From the NCBI GenBank assembly GCA_000004985.1, contig GG738873.1: a stretch of 64,000 bases of DNA; one strand, given 5' to 3'. A model generated the notes under the pieces. The model was not told the origin of the DNA. It was given only the letters and a program-made list of their open reading frames with translations, and made no database searches. This document shows positions 1 through 51,700 of this stretch, piece after piece. How positions within the stretch are numbered: position 1 is the first letter of the stretch; each line of letters starts with the position of its first letter. The DNA is from Naegleria gruberi (Eukaryota). The translations under genes and the position numbers were made by a program.

Positions 1-334
1 AACCCAAACCCAAACCCAAACCCAAACCCAAACCCAAACCCAAACCCAAACCCAAACCCAAACCCAAACCCAAACCCAAACCCAAACCCAAACCCAAACC
101 CAAACCCAAACCCAAACCCAAACCCAAACCCAAACCCAAACCCAAACCCAAACCCAAACCCAAACCCAAACCCAAACCCAAACCCAAACCCAAACCCAAA
201 CCCAAACCCAAACCCAAACCCAAACCCAACCCAAACCCAAACCCAAACCCAAACCCAAACCCAAACCCAAACCCAAACCCAAACCCAAACCCAACCCAAA
301 CCCAAACCCAAACCCAAACCCAAACCCAAACCCA
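1..334. repeat. Telomeric repeat tract (CCCAAA)n, about 55 units with two CCCAA variant units near 228 and 290; C-rich strand reads 5'->3' into the chromosome, as expected for a left chromosome end
   Basis: Perfect 6-bp periodicity 'aaccca' from position 1 to 334, then an abrupt switch to unique AT-rich sequence. Confidence 0.9.
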
Positions 335-985
335 TAAGTTAATTTCATATAATAGATTAGACAATTAGAATATCAATGAAAACATTTCAAAATCATTTCA
401 AATCAATATATCACCTTATAAATCATGTTAATAACAATATATATCAATTTCAAATACTTTGGTATCATTTCAGGATATTTACTATTCAACTTGTCAACTG
501 ACCTATTCTAACATTGAAGATAGAAATCTATACCACTTCAATTCACTTCCAATACATCTGTACATGATAATTAAATACATTAATATCATTTTGACATTCA
601 TCCATATTATACATGGTACATGGCTGATCCACTTGATACCTACAGGGATGTGACAATGACATGTACTATACAGATCATCCTGAAATTGATACAGCACCTT
701 ACCAATGATGAATTAACACCACAGTATCAGTTTCGTGACAATTTGAAATCATTCAACTAGTCAGGAGTGTAATCATGGGAATAATGAATATCAAGATAAT
801 GAAATGATATTAATTTTGAAATCTTTCAATTATAGCATCATATATAGATCAATTAATCATGGTATTTCAATAATTGGTATTGACTTTCATATCAATTCAT
901 TCAAACCTTAATGACCTATCCTTAGTTGACCAAGTCAATTTTAAACTATCATGAATCATATAACTATTGATGCCATTGTGTTCAC

Positions 986-3123
986 NNNNNNNNNNNNNNN
1001 NNNNNNNNNNNNNNNNNNNNNNNNNNNNNNNNNNNNNNNNNNNNNNNNNNNNNNNNNNNNNNNNNNNNNNNNNNNNNNNNNNNNNNNNNNNNNNNNNNNN
1101 NNNNNNNNNNNNNNNNNNNNNNNNNNNNNNNNNNNNNNNNNNNNNNNNNNNNNNNNNNNNNNNNNNNNNNNNNNNNNNNNNNNNNNNNNNNNNNNNNNNN
1201 NNNNNNNNNNNNNNNNNNNNNNNNNNNNNNNNNNNNNNNNNNNNNNNNNNNNNNNNNNNNNNNNNNNNNNNNNNNNNNNNNNNNNNNNNNNNNNNNNNNN
1301 NNNNNNNNNNNNNNNNNNNNNNNNNNNNNNNNNNNNNNNNNNNNNNNNNNNNNNNNNNNNNNNNNNNNNNNNNNNNNNNNNNNNNNNNNNNNNNNNNNNN
1401 NNNNNNNNNNNNNNNNNNNNNNNNNNNNNNNNNNNNNNNNNNNNNNNNNNNNNNNNNNNNNNNNNNNNNNNNNNNNNNNNNNNNNNNNNNNNNNNNNNNN
1501 NNNNNNNNNNNNNNNNNNNNNNNNNNNNNNNNNNNNNNNNNNNNNNNNNNNNNNNNNNNNNNNNNNNNNNNNNNNNNNNNNNNNNNNNNNNNNNNNNNNN
1601 NNNNNNNNNNNNNNNNNNNNNNNNNNNNNNNNNNNNNNNNNNNNNNNNNNNNNNNNNNNNNNNNNNNNNNNNNNNNNNNNNNNNNNNNNNNNNNNNNNNN
1701 NNNNNNNNNNNNNNNNNNNNNNNNNNNNNNNNNNNNNNNNNNNNNNNNNNNNNNNNNNNNNNNNNNNNNNNNNNNNNNNNNNNNNNNNNNNNNNNNNNNN
1801 NNNNNNNNNNNNNNNNNNNNNNNNNNNNNNNNNNNNNNNNNNNNNNNNNNNNNNNNNNNNNNNNNNNNNNNNNNNNNNNNNNNNNNNNNNNNNNNNNNNN
1901 NNNNNNNNNNNNNNNNNNNNNNNNNNNNNNNNNNNNNNNNNNNNNNNNNNNNNNNNNNNNNNNNNNNNNNNNNNNNNNNNNNNNNNNNNNNNNNNNNNNN
2001 NNNNNNNNNNNNNNNNNNNNNNNNNNNNNNNNNNNNNNNNNNNNNNNNNNNNNNNNNNNNNNNNNNNNNNNNNNNNNNNNNNNNNNNNNNNNNNNNNNNN
2101 NNNNNNNNNNNNNNNNNNNNNNNNNNNNNNNNNNNNNNNNNNNNNNNNNNNNNNNNNNNNNNNNNNNNNNNNNNNNNNNNNNNNNNNNNNNNNNNNNNNN
2201 NNNNNNNNNNNNNNNNNNNNNNNNNNNNNNNNNNNNNNNNNNNNNNNNNNNNNNNNNNNNNNNNNNNNNNNNNNNNNNNNNNNNNNNNNNNNNNNNNNNN
2301 NNNNNNNNNNNNNNNNNNNNNNNNNNNNNNNNNNNNNNNNNNNNNNNNNNNNNNNNNNNNNNNNNNNNNNNNNNNNNNNNNNNNNNNNNNNNNNNNNNNN
2401 NNNNNNNNNNNNNNNNNNNNNNNNNNNNNNNNNNNNNNNNNNNNNNNNNNNNNNNNNNNNNNNNNNNNNNNNNNNNNNNNNNNNNNNNNNNNNNNNNNNN
2501 NNNNNNNNNNNNNNNNNNNNNNNNNNNNNNNNNNNNNNNNNNNNNNNNNNNNNNNNNNNNNNNNNNNNNNNNNNNNNNNNNNNNNNNNNNNNNNNNNNNN
2601 NNNNNNNNNNNNNNNNNNNNNNNNNNNNNNNNNNNNNNNNNNNNNNNNNNNNNNNNNNNNNNNNNNNNNNNNNNNNNNNNNNNNNNNNNNNNNNNNNNNN
2701 NNNNNNNNNNNNNNNNNNNNNNNNNNNNNNNNNNNNNNNNNNNNNNNNNNNNNNNNNNNNNNNNNNNNNNNNNNNNNNNNNNNNNNNNNNNNNNNNNNNN
2801 NNNNNNNNNNNNNNNNNNNNNNNNNNNNNNNNNNNNNNNNNNNNNNNNNNNNNNNNNNNNNNNNNNNNNNNNNNNNNNNNNNNNNNNNNNNNNNNNNNNN
2901 NNNNNNNNNNNNNNNNNNNNNNNNNNNNNNNNNNNNNNNNNNNNNNNNNNNNNNNNNNNNNNNNNNNNNNNNNNNNNNNNNNNNNNNNNNNNNNNNNNNN
3001 NNNNNNNNNNNNNNNNNNNNNNNNNNNNNNNNNNNNNNNNNNNNNNNNNNNNNNNNNNNNNNNNNNNNNNNNNNNNNNNNNNNNNNNNNNNNNNNNNNNN
3101 NNNNNNNNNNNNNNNNNNNNNNN
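986..3123. other. Assembly gap (run of N); all ORFs crossing it are artefacts
   Basis: 2138 consecutive n characters. Confidence 0.99.
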
Positions 3124-3154
3124 ATTAACATATATAAGATCCAAGATTTAAATA

Positions 3155-3502
3155 TTGGCCATTAATAAAATGGTAATGGGTTTTCGCCATACCCAAACCC
3201 AAACCCAAACCCACACACAAGGGATTTGGATCGAGGATTTTCCATCCCTTCACTACATTCTATCTAAGTCATTTTACAAAAAATCATATAGAAAGCTCAG
3301 CAAGTACATTGACACCTATGGAAGAAAGAGAAGAGGATGGAAGAGATTTGGAAAGAAGAGAATTATCAGAAAGAAGATTGATGTTTATGGAAAGAAGAGA
3401 AGATTTAATAAGAGAAGAATTGACACTTACAGAAAGAAGAATAGAAAGAATAGAAGAGGTGACAAGAAGAATAAGAAAGTTGATATTTACAAGCGTAAAT
3501 AA
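3155..3502 (+). pseudogene. 5'-truncated copy of the polycationic secreted repeat-peptide gene (paralog of 29385-29810). N-terminal and signal-peptide coding is replaced by unrelated sequence and telomere-like repeats. An alternative E/R-rich frame (3309-3506) is also open because the DNA is purine-rich
   Basis: C-terminal 75 aa nearly identical to the right-arm ORF ('YGRKRRGWKRFGKKRIIRKKIDVYGKKRRFNKRRIDTYRKKNRKNRRG.KKNKKVDIYKRK'). Homology to the right copy ends near 3283, so the signal peptide present in the right copy is absent here. Confidence 0.45.
3191..3213. repeat. Interstitial telomere-like tract (about 3.5 CCCAAA units followed by cacacaa) at the outer edge of the left inverted-repeat arm
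   Basis: 'acccaaacccaaacccaaaccca' at 3191-3213, same unit as the terminal telomere; lies about 70 bp outside the point where homology to the right arm stops. Confidence 0.75.
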
Positions 3503-5060
3503 TTGAAACAGAAATCAATTTCTTTAAAAAGTCTAAATTTTTGAATCAATTTTGCTTTTAATAATTATTTAACATTAGAATAAAGTTGTGAGTCTCCATA
3601 AAATTAAGTTTGTTATTTCATTTGTAAAACAATTAAGACGGGAAGCCTGCCAGGAATATGGCGACAATCCCGCTACAGTCTTTGACTGTATGAACAGTGA
3701 AGGCAACGAATCTATTGATTGTTGGTTCAGTAAGTTTGTTGTTCAAAATAAAGTCATTGATCACCATCTATTTATCACTTTTGAATTTGATCTATTTAGA
3801 AAGAGAAACTTGTGGTTGATCAATAAACATTCGGCAATATATAAAAAAATGAAATTTCTCTGTCCAAGTTGAGTTTCACATATTGCTTAGATTAAAAAAA
3901 GACTACAGCACCACAGGTTCCCAAGTTGTCTCCAACCTCAGTACTGATGTGGCTCGACAATGCGGCCGTAGCCATGCATCTTATCAAAATGTGAAAGACA
4001 AATCAAATTCATACAACTCTTTGCTGGAAATATGATGGTAAAATTTGGTTGTTGGGAGAATTGTTGGATATCTTGGAAAACTTTTGGAGTGAAACAATGA
4101 GATGAATAGTAATGTTAGATAACATCCAAGTGATGTATTTATTATTGTCCTGATGAAGATTTATCAAGTAAATAATGAATGAATAATGTTTGGAAGCATG
4201 TGAAAATTCAACTTTATCATCTCTGGAAAATAATCGAAAAACATTGGCAAAACATTCTTTATGATGTGGTACAATAACAAATCTTGTGCCTCTTGAAATT
4301 GAACAAATTTACCAAATGGTGTTTTTCACTTTGATGAAATTAAATTTTACTTTATCTTCTCCAACTCTACATGTGCTTGATGGAAAGTTTTGAAACTTTC
4401 TGAGGTGATGTTAATGAACATTTAGAACATTCCTATCGTGTTCTTATTGTCTTGTCTGATGTTTTTCATGATGAAAATATTAAAATTAATAAATTGATGA
4501 AATTCTATTTCAAGTAAAAGAATGGCATCCATTTTCTTGTTATATTTCTGATGATTATCATCCAATAAAGTGAGTTTTACTTCTCCAATTGAACAAGACT
4601 CGCCATCAATTTAATCATTGCCTTTTAAAATTTGAAATTCATGTTGAAATTTAATAAAATTAATTTCTATACATTCCAAATGATCGTATCATGTTGTGTT
4701 GAAAATGGTTTTGGAAGTGATGAAGAATTGTTTTTGAAAATCATCCATGATGAAACACGTTGCGAATTTGATGAAATTTTTCTTGTTTAATATTTTTTTA
4801 AAATCATCAAATTTCACTCATCACTTTTCTTTCCATATCAAAAAGTCATCAAATATTTTGATGTAAAGAATTAAAGATGAAAAAATTGAGAAAGCCAAGT
4901 AATAATCTAGATGAGCATTAATTTCATTGAATGAGCTTACTTAAGAGAGCCACAATAGGATTAAAAATTGTCATCACAACATCGGTCTCATCAACAAAAT
5001 CATCAACAAAATCATCATCGAGATGAAAGTATTCACATGGAAATGGATGTTTTTCTATTT
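3283..5060. repeat. Left arm of a diverged inverted repeat (partner 27900-29577, roughly 85-90% identity with indels). It carries the basic-peptide gene copy, a 5S pseudogene and about 1 kb of AT-rich non-coding DNA
   Basis: Reverse-complement matches read directly, for example 3981-4040 against 28900-28960, 3902-3960 against 29024-29079, and 4911-5040 against the reverse complement of 27900-28040. Confidence 0.85.
3901..3973 (-). pseudogene. 5S rRNA pseudogene with an internal deletion of about 46 nt (box A region). Helix I ends and the 3' half are retained, followed by a terminator-like A-run on the plus strand at 3894-3900
   Basis: The reverse complement reads 'ggctacggccgcatt|gtcgagccacatcagtactgaggttggagacaacttgggaacctgtggtgctgtagtc'. 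Compared with the intact copy at 28962-29080 it lacks 'atatcacgatgaatgcacctcatcccgtccgatttgagaagttaagcacc'. Confidence 0.8.
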
Positions 5061-15728: not shown

Positions 15729-16517
15729 TTAGAAGGAAAAGCTCAGGTAGCTTAGTGAGCCAAAGTCATATTGACGAAAGAGAACCTTTCCACTTGTTTC
15801 ATCTTGAGCCATTCCCATGACTATGAAGAGGGGAAGGAAATGTTCACTTCTAGGAATTGCCAATTGATGATGAGGAGCATGCTCACGGTATGAGAAGAGT
15901 TCTTTCAAATTCCATTGTGAAATCTTGTCAATTAGCCAATTGTCAAATTCTTCGGCCCATCTTTCAGTTTTTTTCTTTTTAGAATTGGTTTCCAATAGAT
16001 TGTGAACAGTGCCACCACTTGCAATTACTAATATTTCCATTTCACTCAATTCTTTCAATGCTTTACCTATTTTGAAATGAGTTTCGGCTGAACTTGTTGG
16101 GTCAATCGAGCATTGAACTATTGGAATATTAGAATCTGGAAACATTAGTCCCAAAACAACCCAACTCCCATGATCAAGTCCTCTATCATACTCCCTTCTT
16201 GTTTTTATCCCATTTTGATTCAATTTAGTTTCGACTAATTGTGCAGTTTCGGGCGAACCTTTAGCAGGATACGAAACATGACTCAATTTTGAAAATCCTT
16301 GAAAGTCATGCATTGTTTTATATTCATTTTCATGGAATGAAATGGACACACCTCTATTCTCAATGGATTCTTCCCAATGAGCTGTGAATATGACAATGGC
16401 TTTTGGATGGATTTGTGTGGACAGAGTGGAGAGAAATATGGACATGTTGTGCAGGGGTTGAGCTATGAGGTTGGGAGAACCATGACCTATGAAGAGTGGA
16501 GCAATTCTTGAAGGCAT
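15729..16517 (-). CDS. Extradiol aromatic ring-opening dioxygenase, class III (LigB/YgiD, 4,5-DOPA dioxygenase-like); single exon, 262 aa
   Basis: 'LFIGHGSPNL...IVIFTAHWEE...ILVIASGGTVHNL...' matches the HGSP and SGG(T/S)VHN motifs of the LigB-type dioxygenase family. Confidence 0.8.
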   Translation of the reverse strand: MPSRIAPLFIGHGSPNLIAQPLHNMSIFLSTLSTQIHPKAIVIFTAHWEESIENRGVSISFHENEYKTMHDFQGFSKLSHVSYPAKGSPETAQLVETKLNQNGIKTRREYDRGLDHGSWVVLGLMFPDSNIPIVQCSIDPTSSAETHFKIGKALKELSEMEILVIASGGTVHNLLETNSKKKKTERWAEEFDNWLIDKISQWNLKELFSYREHAPHHQLAIPRSEHFLPLFIVMGMAQDETSGKVLFRQYDFGSLSYLSFSF

Positions 16518-17927: not shown

Positions 17928-20900
17928 TTATACCCAAGTATTATAGCTTACACCTCTTGTTATAAAATCACCAATATCATCTTCTTCTGCATCCATATTA
18001 AAGTCCTCTGTGGTTGTTGTAGGTGTTGAATCAATTGAAGAGTTGGTGTTAATTTTTTCGAATAAATCTTGTAAAGTGCTATCTCTACTTGTGTTATTAT
18101 CGTAAAATACATATTTTCCAACATTATTTTTCTTTTTTCTTCTAATAAAATACCATCCAACACCAGCTACAAGAGTGGCACAAAACGCTACCACCAAGAG
18201 TAAACCAATTGAGCCACCTACAATGTAAGGTAAATAATCAATTTGAGTGAGTGAGAAGTCTGATTTTGCACAAGTGACACAAACTTCCATCATACTACTC
18301 ACAGTTAATTCAGGAATTTGAGAGATGCCAGAAAGTAATTGAGCGCATGAAAAAGCTTGTCCAATTCCAAATTGATATCCAGTTGGTTTGGCAAGAATTT
18401 TGGAATTATCAGAAACAAAATTAAGACTACAATCAATCATATCAAGATTAATATTTTTCAATTCCCATTTCGTTCCCTTCTCTGTTAATTTCATTGAAAT
18501 TCTGTAAGAAACACCTGAACTGAATAAACAAGAGGCGGATGATTTCATTCCACTTGATAATTCACCTCCTGATAAAACTTGTTTTCCATTTTCAAAAGAT
18601 AATCCACCAAAGAATGTTCCATTATTCTTTTTAGAAATCCAAAATTCAATTAAATTACCATTTTCAATATTTGAGAATGGTGATAATTTAAAATCAAGTG
18701 ATACAATATTACTGATATCATGTAAATCTGATGATGCAACAACTTGTCTAATTGGTTTGTCTGTACATTTTGATTTGTTCAATTTACCAATATTCATTTT
18801 AATGATCAAAGGTGGTTGAACTGTTTCAGTTGTTTCTTGTCTTTGAATGATTGGAGGTGTTGTATCTTGATCTGGAATATCTTCTGGAGGTGAAATACTT
18901 GTATCAAATTTATCCAAAGAAGTAACTTTTACAACTTCTGGATCAACATATCTGATAAATAATTTGGTATCATAATTACTCGAAATTGAATCTTGAATCA
19001 AAGCTGCTCTTATATTCATTATGGAATCACTTGTTCCCAATAATGGAAGTTTAGCTGAACAAAATGTTGAATTGAGAACTGTGCATGCAATTTGAGTTTC
19101 TTCAGTGGAATATTGTTGACGAATGAAAAGATTGACATTATTGGTTGGTGGGAAGAATGTTGCCATTGCAAGAATCCTATCACCAAAATAAGCTTGTTTT
19201 GGTAAAACTTTCAATAAATCAAATCTATACAATGTCAATTCGGTATCGGTTGAAATTGGTATTGGATCTGATGTTTCACTAATTAATTCAATTTGAACTG
19301 AAACTTTAAATGAATCCTTCATTACCAAATCTTGGGGAAAGTTGCTTATCAAATCCTTTGCATTAACGAATGGCTTGAATGTAGTTCTTGTTCTACTTCC
19401 TGAGGTTTGAACTGGTAAACGAGCAAGAATCAAATTAAGAGGATCATATTTGAGAATTAAATAAGGTCTTGTTCCTGGTAAAACATAATTTCCTTCCAAA
19501 TAAATTGGAATTGAACCAGTCACTGGAACATATAATGGATAAATCTTTCTAATAGATAAAACTGTTGCCTCACTTTGATCATTATTAATATAAGCAATAG
19601 GTTGGAATTTTGTTAATTGAGTACTTTGATCAAAAACTGATGAATCTGGAGTTAATTGAGAAACTGCAATAATCAAAGATACATCTGTATTCACATTGGT
19701 CACTGTAATCTTTTCAGTATCTTTCGTGAGAACAACCAAATCATTCTTATTAACAACAAAGTTTGAATCTGAGGCTAATTCATTGAATTCTGGACTTGAT
19801 GAATCAATATCTGGAACAATTGTACTGATAGTTGTTGTTTGTTGATCACTCGATAATAAATATTGATCTGGATGATCATATAAAACAAGTGTAAAATATT
19901 TCTGAGTACTTTGAGGAATGACAATTTCTTTTGGGGTTTCATTTGGTGCTTCAATATTAACTGATACCAATAAACTTGAATTTGAAGTTCCTTCTTTGAA
20001 GAAGGTGAATGTTGTTGTATTGGTTGATGGATTGAAAACTTGATTTCCTTTATCAATATCTGTGAATGAAATTGGTCCCTTATCAAAAACTGATGAAATA
20101 TTTGCTTCCTTACTTGATGTATCAATTTCCAAGATTGTAACATTCGTTGAATTATCTTTCAATGTGATACCAAGTAAATCACCATTTGGATTATCAATAA
20201 TTTTGACAAGACCATATGTTGCATTATCCATTGTATTTATAATTGGAATAATCATTTGAGTTGCATTACTGAACTTGTCAATCTTCCAAATAATTAAAGA
20301 ATTTGGAATCTTACTCTTATATAATAAGGTATCAAAAGTTAAAAATTTGTCACCACTTTCAGTATTTACATCTGTTGTAATAGTGTAATATTTCAATAAA
20401 TTACTATTAGTAACATTGGATGGAATACCTTCTAATAAAGTTGTACTTTGTAATATCAAAGATTTACCACAAACAGTATCCATCAACGATTTTTGTAAAT
20501 AAATGTTAGAATCTATCACTGTGATTTGTTCTGCTGGTACAAATGAACCTTTACACAATTCAGTTGTGGTTTGATATTGACATAATTGACCAGTAAATCC
20601 ATCATGACATTTACACAAGTTACCTTCAATACATTTACCATTTCCTCCACAAACACTTGAATTAATTCCAGGTGTACCAAAACAAACTGGAATGGAGCAA
20701 TTCAATCCAATATAATTCTCCAAACATGAACAAGTATCATTTGAAATACAAATTCCATTTCCAAAACATGTTAAATTAGATGTTTGTTCAACACCAAAAC
20801 AGTACGTTTTAGGAATTGATGGAGCTGTTGGATCATTATTTCCAGAATTAGATGTTGGTGTTGTAGTATTAAGAGTTTCGTTTGGAGTAAAATGATTAGA

Positions 20901-23900
20901 ATCAATTGTTGAATTAGATGCGTTACTTGAACTGGTTGAATTGTTAGAACTCTGAGAAGTATTAGATCCATTATTTGAACTGGTTGAATTGATAGAATTA
21001 TTAAATCCATTATTTGATTCAGTAGTATTGTTGGATGAATTTGAGCTATTGTGTGATAATGTAGAATTGTCAGACATTGAAGTAGTACCATTAACTTGAC
21101 TGGAATTATTGCCTGTTGGTGACGAATCGTCAATTGTACTGTTATTAGAATTATTAGAACTATTGGTATTACTATTTGAACTATTGGATACACTTGGATA
21201 TGAGTTATTCATTGAATTAGAGATGGTTGAATTATTAGTTTGTGAAGAAGTATTATTAGAAACTAGAATTGTACTATTTGAACCATAGTTGGTTTCATTG
21301 GTGGAATTAGAAGTATCATAATTGGAAGTTGAGTTATTCAAGACATTGGAGGAAAGATTTGATGAATTCTGAGAAGTGTTGTTACTATTAGTAAATGTTC
21401 CATTACTTGTATTGATAGTAGTAGAATTAGAAGTAATAGTAGAATAGTTTCCATTAGAATTAGTAATATTACTTGTAGAACTATTTGTAGAAATGTTACT
21501 AAAATTCAAAATATTAGATGAATTATTCGATAGCGATTCAGTTGTGGAATTGGATATCACACTTGATTGATTTGAATGACTACTTCCATTATTGATATTA
21601 CTTGTTGAATTAGTTGTGTCAATAATTGAATTATTACCACTACTTGTTGAATTATTTTGATTAATAGTACCATTTATACCATGATTATCAATAGAGGTAA
21701 TGTTTGATGAGTCAGAGTTGTTCAGCAATGAACTGTTACCATGAGAATTAGTTACATTAAATGTTCCATTACTTGAATTATTGACAGTAGAATTAGAGTT
21801 ATTTCCATTCGAATTAGAATTATTGGTAATGTTGGAAGAATAAATAATGGATCCATTTTGAACACTTGTTTGATTCTTGTTGAGAGTTTCATTAAAAACA
21901 TTGGTTGTGTTTGTAGCTCCATTACTTGTTGAATTATTTTGATTAATAGTACTATTTATACCATGATTATTTGTTGAATTGGAATTATAATTCCAGGTAG
22001 TATTATCATTACTTGAATTATTGAGAGTAGAATTAGTGAAATTAGAATAACTATTCGTTGTAGAACTATTGTAAGAAGAATTAATGGTCGAGTTAGACGT
22101 TGCATTATTGTTTGTGGAATTTTGAATCATTGTGTCATTACTCATTGATGTATAGTTATTAATAGTATTGCTACTATTTACATTAATTAGAGAGTTTGTA
22201 GAATTAATTGTTCCGTTTTGAATTGTTGTGGAGTTATGTCCTTCACTTTCTTGATTAGTATTGTTGGTATTAGTACTATTGGAAGAATAAATAATAGACC
22301 CATTTTGAACACTTGTTTGATTCTGGATGATAGTTTCATTAACAACATTGGTTGTGTTTGTAGAATTAACCGTTGCAGAATCAAGTGATGTATTGGACGA
22401 ACCACTTTGATTCTTAATAGTTTCGTTGTAATTACTCGTCTGATTAAGCGTTGAATTTGTTGAACTTTCGCTTGTGTTATTAAGACTTTCTGAACCAGTT
22501 AAATTTGATACCACCTGAGAAGTGTTTAAACCATCAGTTGATGTTTCATTAATACCAATAGTATAGTTTGAATCTTGAGTGCTATTTTTAAAATTGGTAG
22601 AAGAGGTAACATTCATAACTAGAGTTGAATTGAGTCCACTATTTGATGTATCATTTCTATTGTTTGAAATGGAAGTTTGATTACTTGAAACAGTATTATT
22701 ATTTTCAAGAGTTTGATTATTTGTCATGGCAGTGTTATTTGAAACAGTATTATTAGAACCTAATGTATCTACTATTCCTGTACTATTTGTTTCATTTTTT
22801 CCAAAGATTGTTTGGTTATTTGAAATGTTAGTTTGATTATTCAATGAGGTATTGTTTGATGAACTGATAGAGGTATTACCACCTAATTGATCTGTATTAT
22901 TTTGTAAAGTGCTAGAATTAAAGTTAATGGTGCTATTAGAAATGTTACTGCTATTTGATATAATTCCATTCGAAGAATTTGAATTCAAATATGAGGATGA
23001 ATTATTTTCAAGAGTTTGATTGTTTGTGATAGCAGTGTTATTTGAAACAGTAGTTCTGGATTCTCCTGTGCTATTTGTATCATTGTTTCCACTATCAGAG
23101 AAGGTTTCTGTGTTATTGTTTGAAGAAGTGTCATTTGTTGAATCGCTGCTTGTACAATTAGTAGAGCCAGTAGAGGTTCCTGAAAGTGAACTATTTGATG
23201 ATGTTGTGTTTTGAGAGCCCAATGTTGAATTGTTACTTGCTGTATTAGATACTGTCTGATTATTACTTCCTTCAGAATTTTTGTCCACATCATTGCTACC
23301 CTTACTAATGGAGGATTCATTAGTTTTAACTTGATATATAGCATCATCAAAATAGAGTGTTTTAGGGTTTGGCAATAAAACTGTGTTGATCTTTCTTTCA
23401 ACTGGTTCAATTAATTTATCAGAAGGTGTAAGTATACTTGAACCATCAGCTTGTGAAATAACTATAGCATTATCAGTTTGGTAAACTCTTGTAGAATTTT
23501 TTAAACTCATCTTTGTGTTATTATAATACATAGCTAGTTCAGTATCTGAGGAAGTCCCATTAACTACAACTGAATAGAAGAAAGATCCCTCTTCATTAAC
23601 CACTACAACACTTTCATCAAAACCATCAAAGATAAAGAAGTAAGGAATTGCATTTGGGTTATTTGCTATTTTAAATGATGAAACAGTGTTTGAACCTCCA
23701 GTTAATGATAATTTTTGAATGGTTTGAACTTGTGATTTACTCTCTTCGATAATTGGCATGTAAAATTCTAAAACACCATTCTTTCTAAGAAGAGGAGTAC
23801 CATATCTTATTTGCTCTGGTGTAAAGACACCTGGACAGTATGAATATCTAAATGGTACATTAAAGTCATTTGGGAGATAATAATAAACAATCAATTGATT

Positions 23901-26900
23901 TCCATCCAAAACTAACGCATAGAAGTCTTCTCCACTTGAAAGAATTCTCGATGTGGCGTTATTTGTTGGAATAGTGAGAGTCACATTTACAGGAACAGGG
24001 CTTGTGGGGTTTACAATAAATACATTAGGCACTGGTTCATCAATTAAGGAAGTATCAATAGTGATAATAGCCGTATCATTCATTTTCTGGGTTTTCACTA
24101 ACTTATCGAGAAAAGAATCTGTAGTGCCTGGCATTGGTCTAGAAATAGTCAATTCTGTAAGATTTTGTTTCTTGTAAGTGAAATAGTAGCCGCAAACACT
24201 AATTTTTCTTATAGTTAAAGTTAGTAAAAACTTGCTATTATACTTCTTTTCAAGATTGAGAACAAAATCTTCAAACTGACCATCGGGAGTACATATAACA
24301 CTTCCATTAGAACCAGTAGAGTTGGATGATCCATTTGAGTTGTAATATGTTGTTGTGTTGGAACTTTTTGAATTGTCTACGTAACTCGAATTGTTTGTTG
24401 AGTCAAGATGAATAGGTGTGTTGCCACATGTTGTACAATTAGTTATTGTTGTATTGTCATATGTACAATTAGTAGTTGTGTTGTCAAATGTTGTACAATT
24501 AGTAGTATTATCATTGGCAACAGGAGGAATCTTAATAACATATTTTTCACTATCATAAAAATAGTAGGAAGGAGGTGGCAAGTCTGGTGATTTCTTTTCG
24601 TTGGATGATAGATCACTTGGGGAAATAAATAATATTTGGCTAGTTTGAAATGCATAAACAGTAACGAACTCGTTATAGTAAATACCAATGGATATATCTG
24701 TTTGGAATGCGGTAAGTAAATATCTTTCTGTAGCAAATGAAAAATGTTCCCAAGGCCAAGGGATTGTTGCCAATTTACGTACTTCGAAAATCTGAGATAG
24801 AGAGTAGACATTAATGCCCTTTTCACTGTATGTAATTATTCTTTCCTCTGTACCATTAAAAATTGAGAAATATGGTATTATCTGTGGATCATTGGATATT
24901 GTAAAAAAATCCAATTTTTCATCATATTGATTCAAGGATAGAATAAGAATAGTTTGATTTGATCCTTCCTCGATAATTGGCATGTATACATTGATTGTGC
25001 CGTCACTTCGTACTATAGGTTGTCCGTATCTTATTAGGTCTGGAGTGAACAGTGTATTACTAATTGAGGAAGATTTGTATTTCTGCTTATCTGAGTTAAA
25101 TCTTTCTATTAATAGATTGTTGTCATTCAAATTCAATACAAAATACTGAAGACCGTTGCTTAGTAACCTTAATGATCTTGGAGAGTTTGTTGGACCTCCA
25201 GTGGTTAAATAGTTTTGAAGATGTAATTCTTGTAGAGACCAGATTCCTATTGGAGAAATAGATGAAATGTAAAAGACAGGTTGTGTAGATAGGTCATAAC
25301 TTGCCCATGACTGATCAACGGTAACCAATAGTGAGCCTTTGAATACCTGGTATGTAATGAGCTTATCCTTAAATGACTCATAAGAAACAGGATTGTTTTT
25401 AAATTTGGAAAGTCTTTTTTGCTCTGAGCTACTGGTTTTTTTTGAAGAACTGGTAGTAAAATTAATAACAATAGGTTCCATTGTGTAACTAAGGTCAGCC
25501 TCAAAATTTGTTTTAAGCCCAATATAACCACCCAAAAGGACTACTGTTGTATCTATTATCTGACATGAAACACCATAATATGGTGTCTTACATTTACATT
25601 TTTCCGTAATCTCATCACAATAACCATTTCCACTACAAACCAGAGAACTGTTTCCACTAATTCCCCTGCATGTTACCTCGTAGTCACACTTATCGCCTTT
25701 AAAAAACTTATAACAATTGCAGGTATCGTTTTTCGTGCACGAACCATGGCCACTACAAACTGTTGGATCAGCTGATTCTTTCCCAAAACACATTACAATG
25801 GGTTTGTTGAATATTTCTGACGGGGTGGAATATTTTGGAGAGTATTTCAAACCACCTAATGATCCAATAAATTGCCACAAAAACCCATCCTTGAAATTTC
25901 TTCCAATAGAAGCACTTTGAACTACTTTGTCAACAGTTGCGTTGGCTGAAAGAGTTATATTAGTGGATAAATAGCCTTGGTAGCTATAAACACGAGTCTC
26001 GAAAGTGTCAGTACCGTCCATATTTTGGTTTCTAGTAATCGTTACTTGATATGTACTGTTGACTTTAAGGTTTGGATCCAAAACCATACTTTTTCCTTCT
26101 GCAATAGGTGACAAATCCACAACCAAAAACTTTTCTGAGCTAATGAAAACTTTGAATCGGTTTACATAATCAAAAAGGGTCATAGCAGATTCAAGTGACA
26201 ACGGAGAAAAGTAGAAATTGAATGTAAACTCACCACTAAGTAGCAAGTAAATATTTGGATCCGTAATTGAGCAATACGAGTCTTCAGAAAGGGAAACAGA
26301 GAAGTCATTATCAAGGCCAGGAGTGAGCTTTACATTTTCACAAGGAAAAGAAGCACCAGTAAGTTTGTCAACCAGATACAACTTAACTGGCTCTCCCTTA
26401 TAAGAATCGCTTGCTGAAGAAGGTACGCTAAAATATGAGCTGTGAGCTGGAACTCCGTAATAAATGGCTTGCCCTATTCGAAATGATTCAGATTGGCAGC
26501 TTACATCGTTGAAAAAATCAATAATATTAGAACAAAAAGGACCATCATGCAAGTAACTGTACATAAGTAGAGTCTCCTTAGTATAATCTAATTTGTTGTC
26601 TAACATATCGTAACAATAACCGTCCTGTTTCATATTACAAAAATTACCCACTCTAGATCTTGTCGAGGTTGGTTTACATTCACTATCTGGTGAATCGCCA
26701 GTGTTTTCACATTGGCAAACATCTTGATCAGTACAAGTTCCTTTTCCGCTACACACTCCAGGCTCATCAGCAAAAATACCAAAACATGATTTTTGAGAGC
26801 TAGTCTGTAAAATAAGTGACAACTTTTCAATTTGAACATGTGGCTCTATGACAAACATGCTTGAGTTACTAATGAAATTTACAAACGAATCCAAAGAGGA

Positions 26901-27473
26901 GAATGAATTAATACGAGAATTAATGTATCCATTAAGATTCAAATACACGCTGTTCTGATAAATAGTTACTTCCAAATAATTATTAAAACTACCAGAGACG
27001 GACTCGATGGATATCCACTCATTACCATTAAATAAACTCAGGACAATTTTGAAATTGGCCATATCAATTTTTAAAACTGGATTTGATAAAACTGAACAAT
27101 CTCCATCTGAGGTTGTAAAGTTCAATGCAAAAGTCTCTGCCTTAATAATGTTCAACATGTCAATATTTGATGATATTACAATTCCTCCATTACTCGCAGT
27201 ATCATTTCTTAGATATTTACTTTCAACATTTCCATTATTATAGTTCAATCTGTTCCATATCCAAGACTGAACATCCAAATCAAATTTGTAATATATGTTT
27301 CCAGTAGAAGCGCCTTCAACAACACTCAAATTTCCCAATAACATTAAGGCTTGTAAACAGCACAATGTCATAATGATCAGCAGCAAACCACCATTCCTAT
27401 TCGCATGCCAACGCGATGAAGAGTTAATTTCATCTCCTCGCATTGTTGAAACATGCAACTGTTGGCTTTTCAT
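17928..27473 (-). CDS. Giant type I membrane glycoprotein, about 3180 aa and apparently intronless. It has a signal peptide, scattered EGF-like Cys modules, an internally duplicated domain of about 110 aa, an Asn/Ser/Thr sequon-saturated region of about 900 aa, and one TM helix. Its short cytoplasmic tail is conserved with the giant gene at 48788-64000
   Basis: First ATG at 27473 ('MKSQQLHVSTMRGDEINSSSRWHANRNGGLLLIIMTLCCLQALMLLGNLSVVEGA'). EGF-like 'CFGVEQTSNLTCFGNGICISNDTCSCLENYIGLNCSIPVCFG...'. TM 'IVGGSIGLLLVVAFCATLVAGVGWYFI'. Tail 'RRKKKNNVGKYVFYDNN...LQDLFEKINT...TTTT..DAEEDDIGDFITRGVSYNTWV'. Confidence 0.8.
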   Translation of the reverse strand: MKSQQLHVSTMRGDEINSSSRWHANRNGGLLLIIMTLCCLQALMLLGNLSVVEGASTGNIYYKFDLDVQSWIWNRLNYNNGNVESKYLRNDTASNGGIVISSNIDMLNIIKAETFALNFTTSDGDCSVLSNPVLKIDMANFKIVLSLFNGNEWISIESVSGSFNNYLEVTIYQNSVYLNLNGYINSRINSFSSLDSFVNFISNSSMFVIEPHVQIEKLSLILQTSSQKSCFGIFADEPGVCSGKGTCTDQDVCQCENTGDSPDSECKPTSTRSRVGNFCNMKQDGYCYDMLDNKLDYTKETLLMYSYLHDGPFCSNIIDFFNDVSCQSESFRIGQAIYYGVPAHSSYFSVPSSASDSYKGEPVKLYLVDKLTGASFPCENVKLTPGLDNDFSVSLSEDSYCSITDPNIYLLLSGEFTFNFYFSPLSLESAMTLFDYVNRFKVFISSEKFLVVDLSPIAEGKSMVLDPNLKVNSTYQVTITRNQNMDGTDTFETRVYSYQGYLSTNITLSANATVDKVVQSASIGRNFKDGFLWQFIGSLGGLKYSPKYSTPSEIFNKPIVMCFGKESADPTVCSGHGSCTKNDTCNCYKFFKGDKCDYEVTCRGISGNSSLVCSGNGYCDEITEKCKCKTPYYGVSCQIIDTTVVLLGGYIGLKTNFEADLSYTMEPIVINFTTSSSKKTSSSEQKRLSKFKNNPVSYESFKDKLITYQVFKGSLLVTVDQSWASYDLSTQPVFYISSISPIGIWSLQELHLQNYLTTGGPTNSPRSLRLLSNGLQYFVLNLNDNNLLIERFNSDKQKYKSSSISNTLFTPDLIRYGQPIVRSDGTINVYMPIIEEGSNQTILILSLNQYDEKLDFFTISNDPQIIPYFSIFNGTEERIITYSEKGINVYSLSQIFEVRKLATIPWPWEHFSFATERYLLTAFQTDISIGIYYNEFVTVYAFQTSQILFISPSDLSSNEKKSPDLPPPSYYFYDSEKYVIKIPPVANDNTTNCTTFDNTTTNCTYDNTTITNCTTCGNTPIHLDSTNNSSYVDNSKSSNTTTYYNSNGSSNSTGSNGSVICTPDGQFEDFVLNLEKKYNSKFLLTLTIRKISVCGYYFTYKKQNLTELTISRPMPGTTDSFLDKLVKTQKMNDTAIITIDTSLIDEPVPNVFIVNPTSPVPVNVTLTIPTNNATSRILSSGEDFYALVLDGNQLIVYYYLPNDFNVPFRYSYCPGVFTPEQIRYGTPLLRKNGVLEFYMPIIEESKSQVQTIQKLSLTGGSNTVSSFKIANNPNAIPYFFIFDGFDESVVVVNEEGSFFYSVVVNGTSSDTELAMYYNNTKMSLKNSTRVYQTDNAIVISQADGSSILTPSDKLIEPVERKINTVLLPNPKTLYFDDAIYQVKTNESSISKGSNDVDKNSEGSNNQTVSNTASNNSTLGSQNTTSSNSSLSGTSTGSTNCTSSDSTNDTSSNNNTETFSDSGNNDTNSTGESRTTVSNNTAITNNQTLENNSSSYLNSNSSNGIISNSSNISNSTINFNSSTLQNNTDQLGGNTSISSSNNTSLNNQTNISNNQTIFGKNETNSTGIVDTLGSNNTVSNNTAMTNNQTLENNNTVSSNQTSISNNRNDTSNSGLNSTLVMNVTSSTNFKNSTQDSNYTIGINETSTDGLNTSQVVSNLTGSESLNNTSESSTNSTLNQTSNYNETIKNQSGSSNTSLDSATVNSTNTTNVVNETIIQNQTSVQNGSIIYSSNSTNTNNTNQESEGHNSTTIQNGTINSTNSLINVNSSNTINNYTSMSNDTMIQNSTNNNATSNSTINSSYNSSTTNSYSNFTNSTLNNSSNDNTTWNYNSNSTNNHGINSTINQNNSTSNGATNTTNVFNETLNKNQTSVQNGSIIYSSNITNNSNSNGNNSNSTVNNSSNGTFNVTNSHGNSSLLNNSDSSNITSIDNHGINGTINQNNSTSSGNNSIIDTTNSTSNINNGSSHSNQSSVISNSTTESLSNNSSNILNFSNISTNSSTSNITNSNGNYSTITSNSTTINTSNGTFTNSNNTSQNSSNLSSNVLNNSTSNYDTSNSTNETNYGSNSTILVSNNTSSQTNNSTISNSMNNSYPSVSNSSNSNTNSSNNSNNSTIDDSSPTGNNSSQVNGTTSMSDNSTLSHNSSNSSNNTTESNNGFNNSINSTSSNNGSNTSQSSNNSTSSSNASNSTIDSNHFTPNETLNTTTPTSNSGNNDPTAPSIPKTYCFGVEQTSNLTCFGNGICISNDTCSCLENYIGLNCSIPVCFGTPGINSSVCGGNGKCIEGNLCKCHDGFTGQLCQYQTTTELCKGSFVPAEQITVIDSNIYLQKSLMDTVCGKSLILQSTTLLEGIPSNVTNSNLLKYYTITTDVNTESGDKFLTFDTLLYKSKIPNSLIIWKIDKFSNATQMIIPIINTMDNATYGLVKIIDNPNGDLLGITLKDNSTNVTILEIDTSSKEANISSVFDKGPISFTDIDKGNQVFNPSTNTTTFTFFKEGTSNSSLLVSVNIEAPNETPKEIVIPQSTQKYFTLVLYDHPDQYLLSSDQQTTTISTIVPDIDSSSPEFNELASDSNFVVNKNDLVVLTKDTEKITVTNVNTDVSLIIAVSQLTPDSSVFDQSTQLTKFQPIAYINNDQSEATVLSIRKIYPLYVPVTGSIPIYLEGNYVLPGTRPYLILKYDPLNLILARLPVQTSGSRTRTTFKPFVNAKDLISNFPQDLVMKDSFKVSVQIELISETSDPIPISTDTELTLYRFDLLKVLPKQAYFGDRILAMATFFPPTNNVNLFIRQQYSTEETQIACTVLNSTFCSAKLPLLGTSDSIMNIRAALIQDSISSNYDTKLFIRYVDPEVVKVTSLDKFDTSISPPEDIPDQDTTPPIIQRQETTETVQPPLIIKMNIGKLNKSKCTDKPIRQVVASSDLHDISNIVSLDFKLSPFSNIENGNLIEFWISKKNNGTFFGGLSFENGKQVLSGGELSSGMKSSASCLFSSGVSYRISMKLTEKGTKWELKNINLDMIDCSLNFVSDNSKILAKPTGYQFGIGQAFSCAQLLSGISQIPELTVSSMMEVCVTCAKSDFSLTQIDYLPYIVGGSIGLLLVVAFCATLVAGVGWYFIRRKKKNNVGKYVFYDNNTSRDSTLQDLFEKINTNSSIDSTPTTTTEDFNMDAEEDDIGDFITRGVSYNTWV
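20800..23300. repeat. Low-complexity coding DNA inside gene 17928-27473, encoding about 850 aa of near-continuous N-x-S/T sequons (Asn about 30%, Ser about 30%, Thr about 15%) with internal imperfect tandem repeats
   Basis: The translated segment 'NSTNNNATSNSTINSSYNSSTTNSYSNFTNSTLNNSSNDNTTWNYNSNSTNN...' shows recurring units such as 'NQTSVQNGSIIYSSN(I/S)TN'. Confidence 0.8.
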
Positions 27474-28961
27474 CTTGTGGCGCGACAACGGTTTATCTAC
27501 AGTTGAAGTGTTGGTTGTTCTTTTCTGTATAGTTTGTTATGAGAATTTTTTAAAAGGTGATATTGATTTTTTGGGTTGATATTTGGGTCTCTGTTCAGAC
27601 ATGTTTGAGCGCACTAAGGTGATGGATCACCGAGATCTGGAAAGATACTAAGCGCGAGCCTTATCATGCGTGGATTTTGGTGTGAGGCTCAACAAACTCT
27701 TTCAATTGCTGCATTGTTGTGAATGGTCTAGAATGATAACGTCCACTTCAAAAAAGGTCTATTCATTACAGTGATTACCGTAAATTGAGACACAAATCCT
27801 CACGCAACAACTGTTGCACATCAGCTAATAGCAGCAATACATTTTGATTCAATGGAGAATATTTAAAATTATGATGAATTTGATTTGATCCGAGGGATCA
27901 CGTTGCAGTTTCTCAATTTTTTCATCTAATAATATTTCCATGTGAATACTTTCAATGATGATTTTGTTGATGATCTTTAATCCTATTGTTGCTCTCTTAA
28001 GTCAGCTCATTCAATGAAATTAATGCTCATCTAGATAGATTATTACAATTTTTTCATCTTTAATTCTTTACATCAAAATATTTGACGATTTTTTGATATG
28101 GAAAGAAAAGTGATGAGTGAAATTTGATGATTTTAAAAAAATATTTTAACAAGAAAAATTTCATCAAATTCGCAACATGTTTCATCATGGATGATTTTCA
28201 AAGGCAATTCTTCATCACTTCCAAAACCATTTTCAACACAACATGATACGATCATTTGGAATGTATAGAAATTAATTTTATTAAATTTCAACATGAATTT
28301 CAAATTTTAAAAGGCAATGATTAAATTGATGGCGAGTCTTGTTCAATTGGAGAGGTAAAATTCACTTTATTGAATGATAATCATCAGAAATATAACAAGT
28401 AAATGGATGCCATTCTTTTACTTGAAATAGAATTTCATCAATTTATTAATTTTAATATTTTCATCATGAAAAACATCAGACAAGACAATAAGAAGACGAT
28501 GGGCATGTTCTAAATGTTCATTAACATCACCTCAGAAAGTTTCAAAACTTTCCATCAAGCACATGTAGAGTTGGAGAAGATAAAGTAAAATTTAATTTCA
28601 TCAAAGTGAAAAACACTTTTTGGTAAACCTGTTCAATTTCAAGAGGAGGCACAAGATTTGTTATTGTACCACATCATAAAGAATGTTTTGCCAATGTTTT
28701 TCGATTATTTTCCAGAGATGATAAAGTTGAATTTTCACATGCTTCCAAACATTATTCATTCATTATTTACTTGATAAATCTTCATCAGGACAATAATAAA
28801 TACATCACTTGGATGTTATCTAACATTACTATTCATCTCATTGTTTCACTCCAAAAGTTTTCCAAGATATCCAACAATCCTCCCAACAAGAATATTTTAC
28901 CATCATATTTCCAGCAAAGAGTTGTATGAATTTGATTTGTCTTTCACATTTTGATAAGAAT

Positions 28962-29080
28962 GGCTACGGCCATATCACGATGAATGCACCTCATCCCGTC
29001 CGATTTGAGAAGTTAAGCACCGTCGAGCCACATCAGTACTGAGGTTGGAGACAACTTGGGAACCTGTGGTGCTGTAGTCT
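28962..29080 (+). rRNA. 5S ribosomal RNA gene (about 119 nt), apparently intact
   Basis: 'GGCTACGGCCATATCACGATGAATGCACCTCATCCCGTCCGATTTGAGAAGTTAAGCACCGTCGAGCCACATCAGTACTGAGGTTGGAGACAACTTGGGAACCTGTGGTGCTGTAGTC'. Helix I pairs 5' GGCUACGGC with 3' GCUGUAGUC. The conserved 3' half 'GGTTGGAGACAAC..GGGAAC...GGTGCTGTA' closely resembles Dictyostelium 5S. Confidence 0.9.
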
Positions 29081-29085
29081 TTTTT
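29080..29085 (+). terminator. Pol III terminator T-run immediately 3' of the 5S gene
   Basis: 'tttttt' directly after '...gctgtagtc'. Confidence 0.7.
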
Positions 29086-29384
29086 GAAATCTTTCTCTTC
29101 TAAATAGATCAAATTCAAAGGAGATAAACAGATGGTCAGGTTGCAATCTTTTCTAAACAATAACTTACTGAACCAACAATCAATAGATTAGTTGCCTTCA
29201 CTGTTCATACAGTCGCCATATTCCTGGCAGGCTTCCCGTCCAATTAAAAGCTTAGTTTAAGCAGAAATAGAGAGAAACTCTCTAACCCTTAAAACCACAA
29301 AAAAGCAACTAAATAATGTTAAATTTAAAAGCAAAATTGATTTAAAAATTTATTCTTTTTAAGGAAATTTGATTTGTTTTTCAA

Positions 29385-29810
29385 TTATTTACGCTTGTAG
29401 ATATCAACTTTCTTATTCTTTCCACCTCGTCTATTCTTTCTATTTTTCTTTCTATAAGTATCAATTCTTCTCTTATTAAATCTTCTCTTCTTTCCATAAA
29501 CATCAATCTTCTTTCTAATAATTCTCTTCTTTCCAAATCTCTTCCATCCTCTTCTCTTTCTTCCATAGGTGTACTTGTTGAGCTTTCTATTGTTCTTTCT
29601 CTTCTTTAATCTGTATTTCTTGAGATTTCTCTTCTTGTTATTATTCTTTCTAATGTACAAGGAAAGTGTTGAGGCAGCAGTTGTTGCTTCTTCTGCAGAA
29701 ACTCCTGAAGTGAAGGAAAGTGCAAGAATGGCCAAAGTCAAGGCAATCAACAAGATTGAAATGAATCTTTTCATTGTTTTTTTGAGTGTTTTGTTCAAGA
29801 AGTGAAACAT
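29385..29810 (-). CDS. Secreted, extremely basic (Lys/Arg-rich) tandem-repeat peptide of about 130-141 aa. It has a signal peptide followed by four or more repeats of about 11 residues of the form x-D-x-Y-(G/R)-(R/K)-K-(R/N)-R. The real start is probably the second ATG at 29774
   Basis: 'MKRFISILLIALTLAILALSFTSGVSAEEATTAAS...YRLKKRKNNRKLNKYTYGRKRRGWKRFGKKRIIRKKIDVYGKKRRFNKRRIDTYRKKNRKNRRGGKNKKVDIYKRK'. The reading frame and most of the sequence are conserved in the diverged left-arm copy. An overlapping E/R-rich frame (29381-29566) lacks a signal peptide. Confidence 0.5.
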   Translation of the reverse strand: MFHFLNKTLKKTMKRFISILLIALTLAILALSFTSGVSAEEATTAASTLSLYIRKNNNKKRNLKKYRLKKRKNNRKLNKYTYGRKRRGWKRFGKKRIIRKKIDVYGKKRRFNKRRIDTYRKKNRKNRRGGKNKKVDIYKRK

Positions 29811-30464: not shown

Positions 30465-30545
30465 TGCAGAAGGTGGGATTTGAACCCACGAAGCTTGCGC
30501 AGTAGAACTTGAGTCTACCCCCTTTGACCACTCGGGAACCCCTGC
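30465..30545 (-). tRNA. tRNA-Leu (anticodon CAA) with a long variable arm
   Basis: Minus-strand sequence 'GCAGGGGTTCCCGAGTGGTCAAAGGGGGTAGACTCAAGTTCTACTGCGCAAGCTTCGTGGGTTCAAATCCCACCTTCTGCA'. Acceptor stem GCAGGGG/CTTCTGC, anticodon stem GTAGA/TCTAC with loop CT-CAA-GT, T-arm GTGGG-TTCAAAT-CCCAC, and a variable arm of about 12 nt. Confidence 0.85.
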
Positions 30546-48787: not shown

Positions 48788-51700
48788 TTAATTCCATACA
48801 GCATAACTATTAACCATAACATTAGGATCTGCATCATCATCATCAAATTCTGGCATAACATTTGTTGTTGTTGCTGTAGATGAGGACATTTGATCATCAG
48901 AAGAATTCATCTTATCAAACAAGTCATTCATTGCATCTTGTAAATCATCTCTGTTGTGGGCATAATCATAAACAGAATACTTGCTACTTCTCATCTTCTT
49001 TCTTCTGTAATACCAAATACCAGCAACAACGAATACCAATACTGTAACTATTAAAATAATTGCAACTGCACCAGAAATTGCTCCAGCAAGAATGGTTGTA
49101 ATATTGGAGGATTCCATGTTAGGTAATAAAGTGGCATGGGCAACACACTTTTGAACTTTACAAGCAGCCACAATATTGTACAAATCTGTTTCAATGTTAA
49201 TGGTTGGCTTATTTAGAATTTGAGTACAAGTTACACTACTTTCCAACCTTAATGTGTAATTATGAGAGAACTTTTCAATAAATTGAGGGTAAGTGATTGG
49301 GAGAATAAAAGAGTTAGAATTACAAATGGCATCTCCATTGCTGTCCTTGATTGTGTAAGAGAGAGTGGCTTTCCAATCCTTATAATCTTGAGAGGACCAT
49401 TCAGAATAATCTAATTGAGAGAAACTGTGTGTAACCTTCATATCTAACTTCATATTTTCACCTTCTTTAAAGTCACAACGAGTAGATATATTTTTGGTTT
49501 CAAATGAATGTACCCAAGTTACTTCAGAATAAAGANNNNNNNNNNNNNNNNNNNNNNNNNNNNNNNNNNNNNNNNNNNNNNNNNNNNNNNNNNNNNNNNN
49601 NNNNNNNNNNNNNNNNNNNNNNNNNNNNNNNNNNNNNNNNNNNNNNNNNNNNNNNNNNNNNNNNNNNNNNNNNNNNNNNNNNNNNNNNNNNNNNNNNNNN
49701 NNNNNNNNNNNNNNNNNNNNNNNNNNNNNNNNNNNNNNNNNNNNNNNNNNNNNNNNNNNNNNNNNNNNNNNNNNNNNNNNNNNNNNNNNNNNNNNNNNNN
49801 NNNNNNNNNNNNNNNNNNNNNNNNNNNNNNNNNNNNNNNNNNNNNNNNNNNNNNNNNNNNNNNNNNNNNNNNNNNNNNNNNNNNNNNNNNNNNNNNNNNN
49901 NNNNNNNNNNNNNNNNNNNNNNNNNNNNNNNNNNNNNNNNNNNNNNNNNNNNNNNNNNNNNNNNNNNNNNNNNNNNNNNNNNNNNNNNNNNNNNNNNNNN
50001 NNNNNNNNNNNNNNNNNNNNNNNNNNNNNNNNNNNNNNNNNNNNNNNNNNNNNNNNNNNNNNNNNNNNNNNNNNNNNNNNNNNNNNNNNNNNNNNNNNNN
50101 NNNNNNNNNNNNNNNNNNNNNNNNNNNNNNNNNNNNNNNNNNNNNNNNNNNNNNNNNNNNNNNNNNNNNNNNNNNNNNNNNNNNNNNNNNNNNNNNNNNN
50201 NNNNNNNNNNNNNNNNNNNNNNNNNNNNNNNNNNNNNNNNNNNNNNNNNNNNNNNNNNNNNNNNNNNNNNNNNNNNNNNNNNNNNNNNNNNNNNNNNNNN
50301 NNNNNNNNNNNNNNNNNNNNNNNNNNNNNNNNNNNNNNNNNNNNNNNNNNNNNNNNNNNNNNNNNNNNNNNNNNNNNNNNNNNNNNNNNNNNNNNNNNNN
50401 NNNNNNNNNNNNNNNNNNNNNNNNNNNNNNNNNNNNNNNNNNNNNNNNNNNNNNNNNNNNNNNNNNNNNNNNNNNNNNNNNNNNNNNNNNNNNNNNNNNN
50501 NNNNNNNNNNNNNNNNNNNNNNNNNNNNNNNNNNNNNNNNNNNNNNNNNNNNNNNNNNNNNNNNNNNNNNNNNNNNNNNNNNNNNNNNNNNNNNNNNNNN
50601 NNNNNNNNNNNNNNNNNNNNNNNNNNNNNNNNNNNNNNNNNNNNNNNNNNNNNNNNNNNNNNNNNNNNNNNNNNNNNNNNNNNNNNNNNNNNNNNNNNNN
50701 NNNNNNNNNNNNNNNNNNNNNNNNNNNNNNNNNNNNNNNNNNNNNNNNNNNNNNNNNNNNNNNNNNNNNNNNNNNNNNNNNNNNNNNNNNNNNNNNNNNN
50801 NNNNNNNNNNNNNNNNNNNNNNNNNNNNNNNNNNNNNNNNNNNNNNNNNNNNNNNNNNNNNNNNNNNNNNNNNNNNNNNNNNNNNNNNNNNNNNNNNNNN
50901 NNNNNNNNNNNNNNNNNNNNNNNNNNNNNNNNNNNNNNNNNNNNNNNNNNNNNNNNNNNNNNNNNNNNNNNNNNNNNNNNNNNNNNNNNNNNNNNNNNNN
51001 NNNNNNNNNNNNNNNNNNNNNNNNNNNNNNNNNNNNNNNNNNNNNNNNNNNNNNNNNNNNNNNNNNNNNNNNNNNNNNNNNNNNNNNNNNNNNNNNNNNN
51101 NNNNNNNNNNNNNNNNNNNNNNNNNNNNNNNNNNNNNNNNNNNNNNNNNNNNNNNNNTTTCTTTTGGTAAATCCAATGTTTGATGCAGTCTTCTTGATTA
51201 CATTCAACTTGATGAATGTATTCTTAACTGTATTCACAAGGTAAATAATATCGTCAACTTTAACAATACTGATCTTGTCAGAGTATTCGGAAAATTGAGA
51301 AATACTTGATGGGTAATTAGCAATTTGTTCAAACTTCATAGAATCTGTCCATAGATTGGTTTTGGAATCTTGTTGAGTAACATTTGCAATAAAGATCTTT
51401 GTTCCTTGATCAGTAATGGTGGCAATCAATATCTTGATACCTGAGGCTTCAGTAGCAGAGATTAGCGCTCTAGCGTTAGAAACTGCGTCCTTGTTTGGGA
51501 ATTCAACAGTTGATATGATTCTAACTCTAGCATCGAAGAAAATAAGGGTTGGTGTTAAGGTATATCTATTACTAGCTGTAAAGACAATTGAAGTAGTATT
51601 ATCAACAACAATATTCAAATCCTTAACTGTTTCTCTGTTGAATGTATGATTGTACAATCGTTTGTTGTCGTATAGGGTTGTCTTGATAATACTGTTTCCT

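Follow-up and report, generated by a model that had tools for sequence, protein, structure and literature searches.

Telomeres of ciliates are built from short repeats such as TTGGGG in Tetrahymena and TTTTGGGG in Oxytricha and Euplotes. The TTTGGG repeat found at one chromosome end of the amoeboflagellate Naegleria gruberi resembles these repeats in its A-free G-strand of the form TnGm and in forming arrays some hundreds of bp long, and it is only one base per unit apart from the Tetrahymena repeat. Unlike the ciliate repeats, the N. gruberi array is located on a large scaffold and not on a nanochromosome, and its carrier uses the standard genetic code and belongs to the Discoba, not to the Alveolata.

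The closest described case is the N. gruberi repeat itself. A survey of TG/CA-rich terminal minisatellites in 143 genome assemblies, judged by position and orientation, put forward TTTGGG as a candidate for the N. gruberi telomere on the basis of the same public assembly (Fulneckova et al., 2013, Genome Biol Evol 5:468; PMC3622300). The survey describes the assembly-wide terminal TTTGGG pattern, an in silico result, as convincing in this organism, and its authors regard experiments as still necessary (PMC3622300). Organism, assembly, motif and criterion are the same as in the present analysis and nothing of substance differs; TTTGGG was proposed for N. gruberi as early as 2013 and the feature is an ordinary one. 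The present work adds the anatomy of a single end, namely its variant units, its link to the genes across an N gap, an interstitial repeat and a duplication that contains a 5S pseudogene. In the literature searched, no report of BAL31 sensitivity, terminal restriction fragments or TRAP for Naegleria was found, and the N. fowleri Nanopore genome paper makes no mention of telomeres.

Dictyostelids provide a further point of comparison. Dictyostelium fasciculatum carries TTAGGG and Polysphondylium pallidum TAAGGG at the chromosome ends, whereas those of D. discoideum derive from rDNA and carry A(G)n (PMC6759168). In the light of the first two species, a simple repeat is unsurprising even within Dictyostelia. 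Like the dictyostelids, Naegleria is an amoeboid protist with an AT-rich genome, and it shares with D. discoideum an extrachromosomal rDNA, which in Naegleria is a plasmid (PMC6831594). In contrast to the dictyostelids, it belongs to a different supergroup and has a different repeat.

The terminal array and its scaffold

The window, i.e. the whole 64-kb stretch of DNA that was analysed, opens directly with the repeat. Positions 1-334 open with AA, continue with 53 perfect CCCAAA units and close with CCCA; two CCCAA variants are interspersed at 225 and 290. Tandem Repeats Finder reported the same interval as a single array with a period of 6, 56.0 copies, 98% matches and the consensus AACCCA. 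Both results bear out a preliminary description of this DNA, which had counted about 55 copies of a 6-bp unit with the G-strand TTTGGG. The array length of 334 bp is a lower bound that is set by read assembly. When at most one mismatch was allowed, a three-unit 18-mer matched 52 times in the window and not once in 100 dinucleotide shuffles. The array starts with the first base of the window. Its C-rich strand lies 5' at this left end, as is correct for a telomere, and the G-strand TTTGGG therefore runs 5' to 3' toward the terminus on the minus strand. A short T/G-rich tandem unit, a terminal position and a G-strand directed toward the end are among the characteristics of the TnAmGo class of telomere repeats, and this array shows them at the end of the window. 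No variant unit interrupts its distal 224 bp; the two that occur (TTGGG on the G-strand) reside in the proximal third.

AT-rich unique sequence begins directly after the array (Table 1). This stretch of 651 bp is the only unique sequence that is physically contiguous with the repeat. Its GC content of 27.6% resembles that of Naegleria intergenic DNA (29-31%), its longest open frame spans 72 codons, and no similarity to it was found elsewhere in the window or in 124 retrieved loci. It is followed by 2,138 N, so that only scaffolding joins the telomere contig to the gene-bearing second contig, which starts at 3124. The N. gruberi draft assembly (ACER00000000) is gapped and comprises 784 scaffolds (PMC6831594 Table 1). 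Another N gap (49536-51157) is situated farther inside the window, and a reading frame of 4,791 codons (49519-63894, minus strand) stays open across it. Nested tandem repeats with a period of 15 and super-periods of 60/75/105/120 nt, accompanied by direct repeats of ~1.26-1.7 kb, occupy positions 59649-60039 and 58653-63209, and all of these repeats fall within the coordinates of the same frame.

Table 1. Features at the analysed chromosome end (positions refer to the window) and capped contig ends of the metagenome set JAESGV01
Feature	Position	Strand	Basis
Telomere array, C-rich strand	1..334	+	Repeat parse, Tandem Repeats Finder, shuffle test
Distal subtelomeric unique sequence	335..985	.	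Composition; similarity searches
Scaffold gap, 2,138 N	986..3123	.	N run in window
Interstitial telomere-like repeat, CCCAAACCCAAACCCAAACCCA then CACACACAA	3192..3222	+	Motif scan
Inverted duplicate of 27934-29598, 1.77 kb, 86-97% identity	3278..5044	-	Self-comparison of window
5S rRNA pseudogene, inside duplicate	3900..3973	-	Rfam, 42 bits; alignment to full gene
Internal source copy of duplicated block	27934..29598	+	Self-comparison of window
5S rRNA gene, intact, full length	28962..29080	+	Rfam RF00001, 101.9 bits
JAESGV01 capped ends: L007, L016, L017, L023, L042, L043, L045, L046, L054, L061			
JAESGV01 capped ends, further: L063, L068, L073, L084, L089, L091, L092, L097, L112			

Host genome and 5S rRNA genes

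The host was identified by an exact-sequence look-up, in which the translations of 7 of the 10 window ORFs proved identical to annotated proteins of N. gruberi NEG-M, all of them encoded on one 461,873-bp scaffold. Among these exact matches are XP_002676237, XP_002676239, XP_002676240 (DODA), XP_002676245 (adenylate/guanylate cyclase), XP_002676165 and XP_002676166 (DEP-RGS). The lineage of N. gruberi is Discoba; Heterolobosea, so that it belongs to neither Amoebozoa nor Alveolata, and the seven exact matches therefore identify the host as a heterolobosean, neither a dictyostelid nor a ciliate. Of the 19 ORFs that reach 200 aa or more, 17 terminate on TAA and one each on TAG and TGA, in keeping with the standard code. 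The preliminary description had argued for this code and against a ciliate, and on both points it was right: a ciliate origin is ruled out by stop-codon usage and protein identity.

An Rfam analysis of the whole 64-kb window returned two 5S matches and one tRNA. SSU and LSU rRNA genes were not detected by Rfam in this window, so that the end does not have the rDNA cap typical of D. discoideum. One of the 5S matches is an intact gene, and the other is a pseudogene that has lost 45 nt from its interior (about positions 12-56) and is identical to the full gene over the 3' ~60 nt. It is evidently this subtelomeric pseudogene that was previously noticed as a Dictyostelium-like 5S 3' half. The presence of 5S sequence was thus correctly recognized, whereas its likeness to Dictyostelium does not serve as a lineage clue. 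In a comparison that serves as a lead only, the Naegleria 5S shares 74% identity with the 5S of D. discoideum, 71% with that of human and 68% with that of yeast. The likeness is not diagnostic; it carries no taxonomic weight and is overridden by the exact protein matches. A tRNA-Leu(CAA) gene (30465-30545, minus strand) lies within 1.5 kb of the intact 5S gene and forms a small RNA polymerase III cluster with it.

The proposal of a dictyostelid-like amoebozoan host, in which a simple TTTGGG telomere would contrast with the rDNA-derived ends of D. discoideum, has several features of this DNA in its favour. The genome is AT-rich, its proteins are rich in Asn and Ser, introns are few, and the 3' half of the 5S shares motifs with D. 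discoideum 5S rRNA. The proposal is refuted by the window proteins that are identical to those of N. gruberi NEG-M; in addition, DODA has a higher identity with Naegleria lovaniensis (53%) than with Polysphondylium violaceum (43%), and the human 5S figure is close to that of Dictyostelium. A dictyostelid host can be regarded as virtually impossible. Since the host is N. gruberi, the contrast with the rDNA-capped ends of D. discoideum is moot. The putative surface protein encoded by the ORF at 17928-27488 (minus strand; 3,186 codons) combines EGF-like cysteine motifs with a C-terminal transmembrane segment and an Asn/Ser/Thr-rich low-complexity region of ~1,000 residues, and the Dictyostelium-like composition of this protein may have misled the preliminary description.

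Two proteins were considered as taxonomic markers and rejected: DODA looks bacterial-like, the homologues of a BTB protein are exclusively metagenomic, and neither names the host. Besides the two amoebae mentioned above, the named matches of DODA include Bacillota at about 48-51% identity, and the BTB protein has only two homologues, one in metagenome ERR1078381 (98%) and one in a JGI metagenome (36%). The DODA-type extradiol dioxygenase XP_002676240 is encoded at 15729-16517 on the minus strand. Its closest relatives include proteins of Bacillota (Ammoniphilus, Bacillus, Paenibacillus; 44-51% identity) alongside that of N. lovaniensis, a distribution of sequences that points to an ancient transfer of the gene from bacteria to Naegleria. 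Environmental data also contain relatives of the window as DNA. Three contigs (L001-L003; ENA ERZ929261 / Logan ERR1078381, PRJEB11402) are 97-98.7% identical to the window at 14.8-16.5 and 32.0-39.8 kb, and the PRJEB11402 sample, which is labelled as a metagenome, therefore contains an N. gruberi strain or a close relative. A fourth contig (L004; JGI 3300002220, MLSBCLC_10107924), from an environmental sample, is syntenic with the window at 32.9-35.3 kb, where the BTB protein and its neighbour are matched at 36-57% amino-acid identity; its source is a more distant Naegleria-like organism.

Interstitial repeat and inverted duplication

Interstitial telomeric repeats can mark the boundaries of subtelomeric blocks, for example at the yeast X/Y' junctions and in human subtelomeres. 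In the window, the only run of two or more CCCAAA units besides the terminal array is found at 3192-3222. Its (CCCAAA)3.7 portion (3192-3215) is placed 68 bp into the second contig and runs in the same direction as the terminal array. As in yeast and human, a short same-orientation repeat is located between a distal block and a duplicated proximal one; the Naegleria repeat differs in comprising only ~3.7 units. The terminal array and the interstitial repeat share the phase of their proximal junction, both closing with ...AAACCCA. On the G-strand, a TG-rich (GTGTG) stretch precedes the interstitial repeat, with ...CCTTGTGTG on one side of the junction and TGGGTTTGGG on the other.

The inverted duplicate begins 56 bp from the interstitial repeat. 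It starts inside a truncated, start-less copy (3278-3500) of the basic secreted-protein gene at 29385-29810, of which the C-terminal ~65 codons alone are left. The favoured reading is that the chromosome would formerly have ended at about 3222, where a break would have been healed by telomerase on the TG-rich seed; alternatively, this end could have originated from a telomere-adjacent (fold-back) duplication. In either case, the end would have been buried later through the capture of the distal subtelomeric block (1-3191). The interstitial repeat may thus be the relic of an earlier chromosome end, as judged from the arrangement of the sequence. The more specific proposal that it records a break healed by de novo telomere addition is offered as a tentative one, with the odds rather against it.

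TTTGGG as a telomere repeat in Naegleria and beyond

A scan of metagenome contigs for (CCCAAA)8 yielded at least 120 loci. Among the matches listed, 76 arrays are internal and 44 terminal, and on account of the 76 internal ones the motif alone is not diagnostic of a telomere. Among the terminal arrays listed, 36 have the telomere-correct and 8 the wrong orientation (binomial p = 2.5e-5). This orientation bias among the matches listed is a further, independent argument for a telomeric behaviour of TTTGGG arrays in nature.

The array at 1-334 is very probably a genuine N. gruberi telomere produced by a telomerase with a TTTGGG-specifying template. Situated at one end of the 461,873-bp N. gruberi NEG-M scaffold, it would represent the telomere C-strand. 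Telomerase would copy an RNA template that specifies TTTGGG, for which 3'-AAACCCAAAC-5' is a hypothetical example, and the homogeneous distal 224 bp and the proximal variants would fit the usual pattern of distal turnover by telomerase and proximal decay. Neither TERT nor a telomerase RNA is encoded in the 64-kb window.

Two other explanations of the array have to be weighed. Scaffolding might have joined a real Naegleria telomere contig of 985 bp to the gene contig of another chromosome. Such an error is easily imagined where only 651 bp of unique sequence stand beside the array before the N run, and where an interstitial repeat, reached after 68 bp of the proximal contig, and a duplicated block make for a repeat-rich and therefore error-prone setting for a scaffolder. 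However, the interstitial repeat is oriented as the terminal array is, and over its first ~5 kb the proximal contig is subtelomere-like in being gene-poor, duplicated and pseudogene-bearing. A misjoin is accordingly considered unlikely, and we infer that the join across 986-3123 is correct; a wrong join would in any case leave the identity of the repeat as a Naegleria telomere unchanged. The array might also be a plain internal microsatellite, or a contaminant or vector sequence (e.g. from a ciliate), that came to stand at the scaffold end by chance. Internal (CCCAAA)n arrays do occur in at least 76 unrelated metagenome contigs, some of them GC-rich and probably bacterial or algal. Yet the present array stands at the very end and is oriented as a telomere should be, and the adjoining 651 bp are Naegleria-like in composition. 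The motif recurs at 3192-3215 within bona fide Naegleria sequence, which counts against a vector or contaminant. Every matched ORF (7 of 10 tested) is that of N. gruberi, with TAA/TAG/TGA stops and nothing ciliate, and the assembly-wide survey reports a convincing terminal pattern for this organism (PMC3622300). An origin from a microsatellite or a contaminant is thus highly improbable, far more so than a misjoin.

Beyond the N. gruberi telomere, the metagenome set JAESGV01 contains at least 19 contig ends with telomere-correct (TTTGGG)n, whose flanks have 22-39% GC (Table 1). At least one other AT-rich eukaryote therefore uses TTTGGG caps. This AT-rich eukaryote encodes PPR-E-DYW proteins. 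A Ty3-like retroelement is found directly beside one of its telomeres (L046:229-3765), and the contigs L017 and L089 have duplicated subtelomeric gene sets in common. The best named matches of its AFG1 ATPase are from Glomeromycota (37%) and from the heterolobosean Acrasis kona, the most identical of them with 43% over 71% of the query. It is possible that the JAESGV01 organism is a heterolobosean. That TTTGGG serves as the telomere repeat in a broader group of AT-rich protists, most of it unsampled and possibly heterolobosean, is a speculative extension that we consider less probable than its opposite.

For the organism itself, the apparent combination of a ciliate-like telomere, a Dictyostelium-like 5S and the standard code is simply N. 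gruberi, and the host assignment is corrected accordingly. The finding has little significance beyond this bookkeeping. It does provide a defined chromosome end with a junction at 334/335, which is usable for the design of terminal-fragment or telomere-PCR assays.
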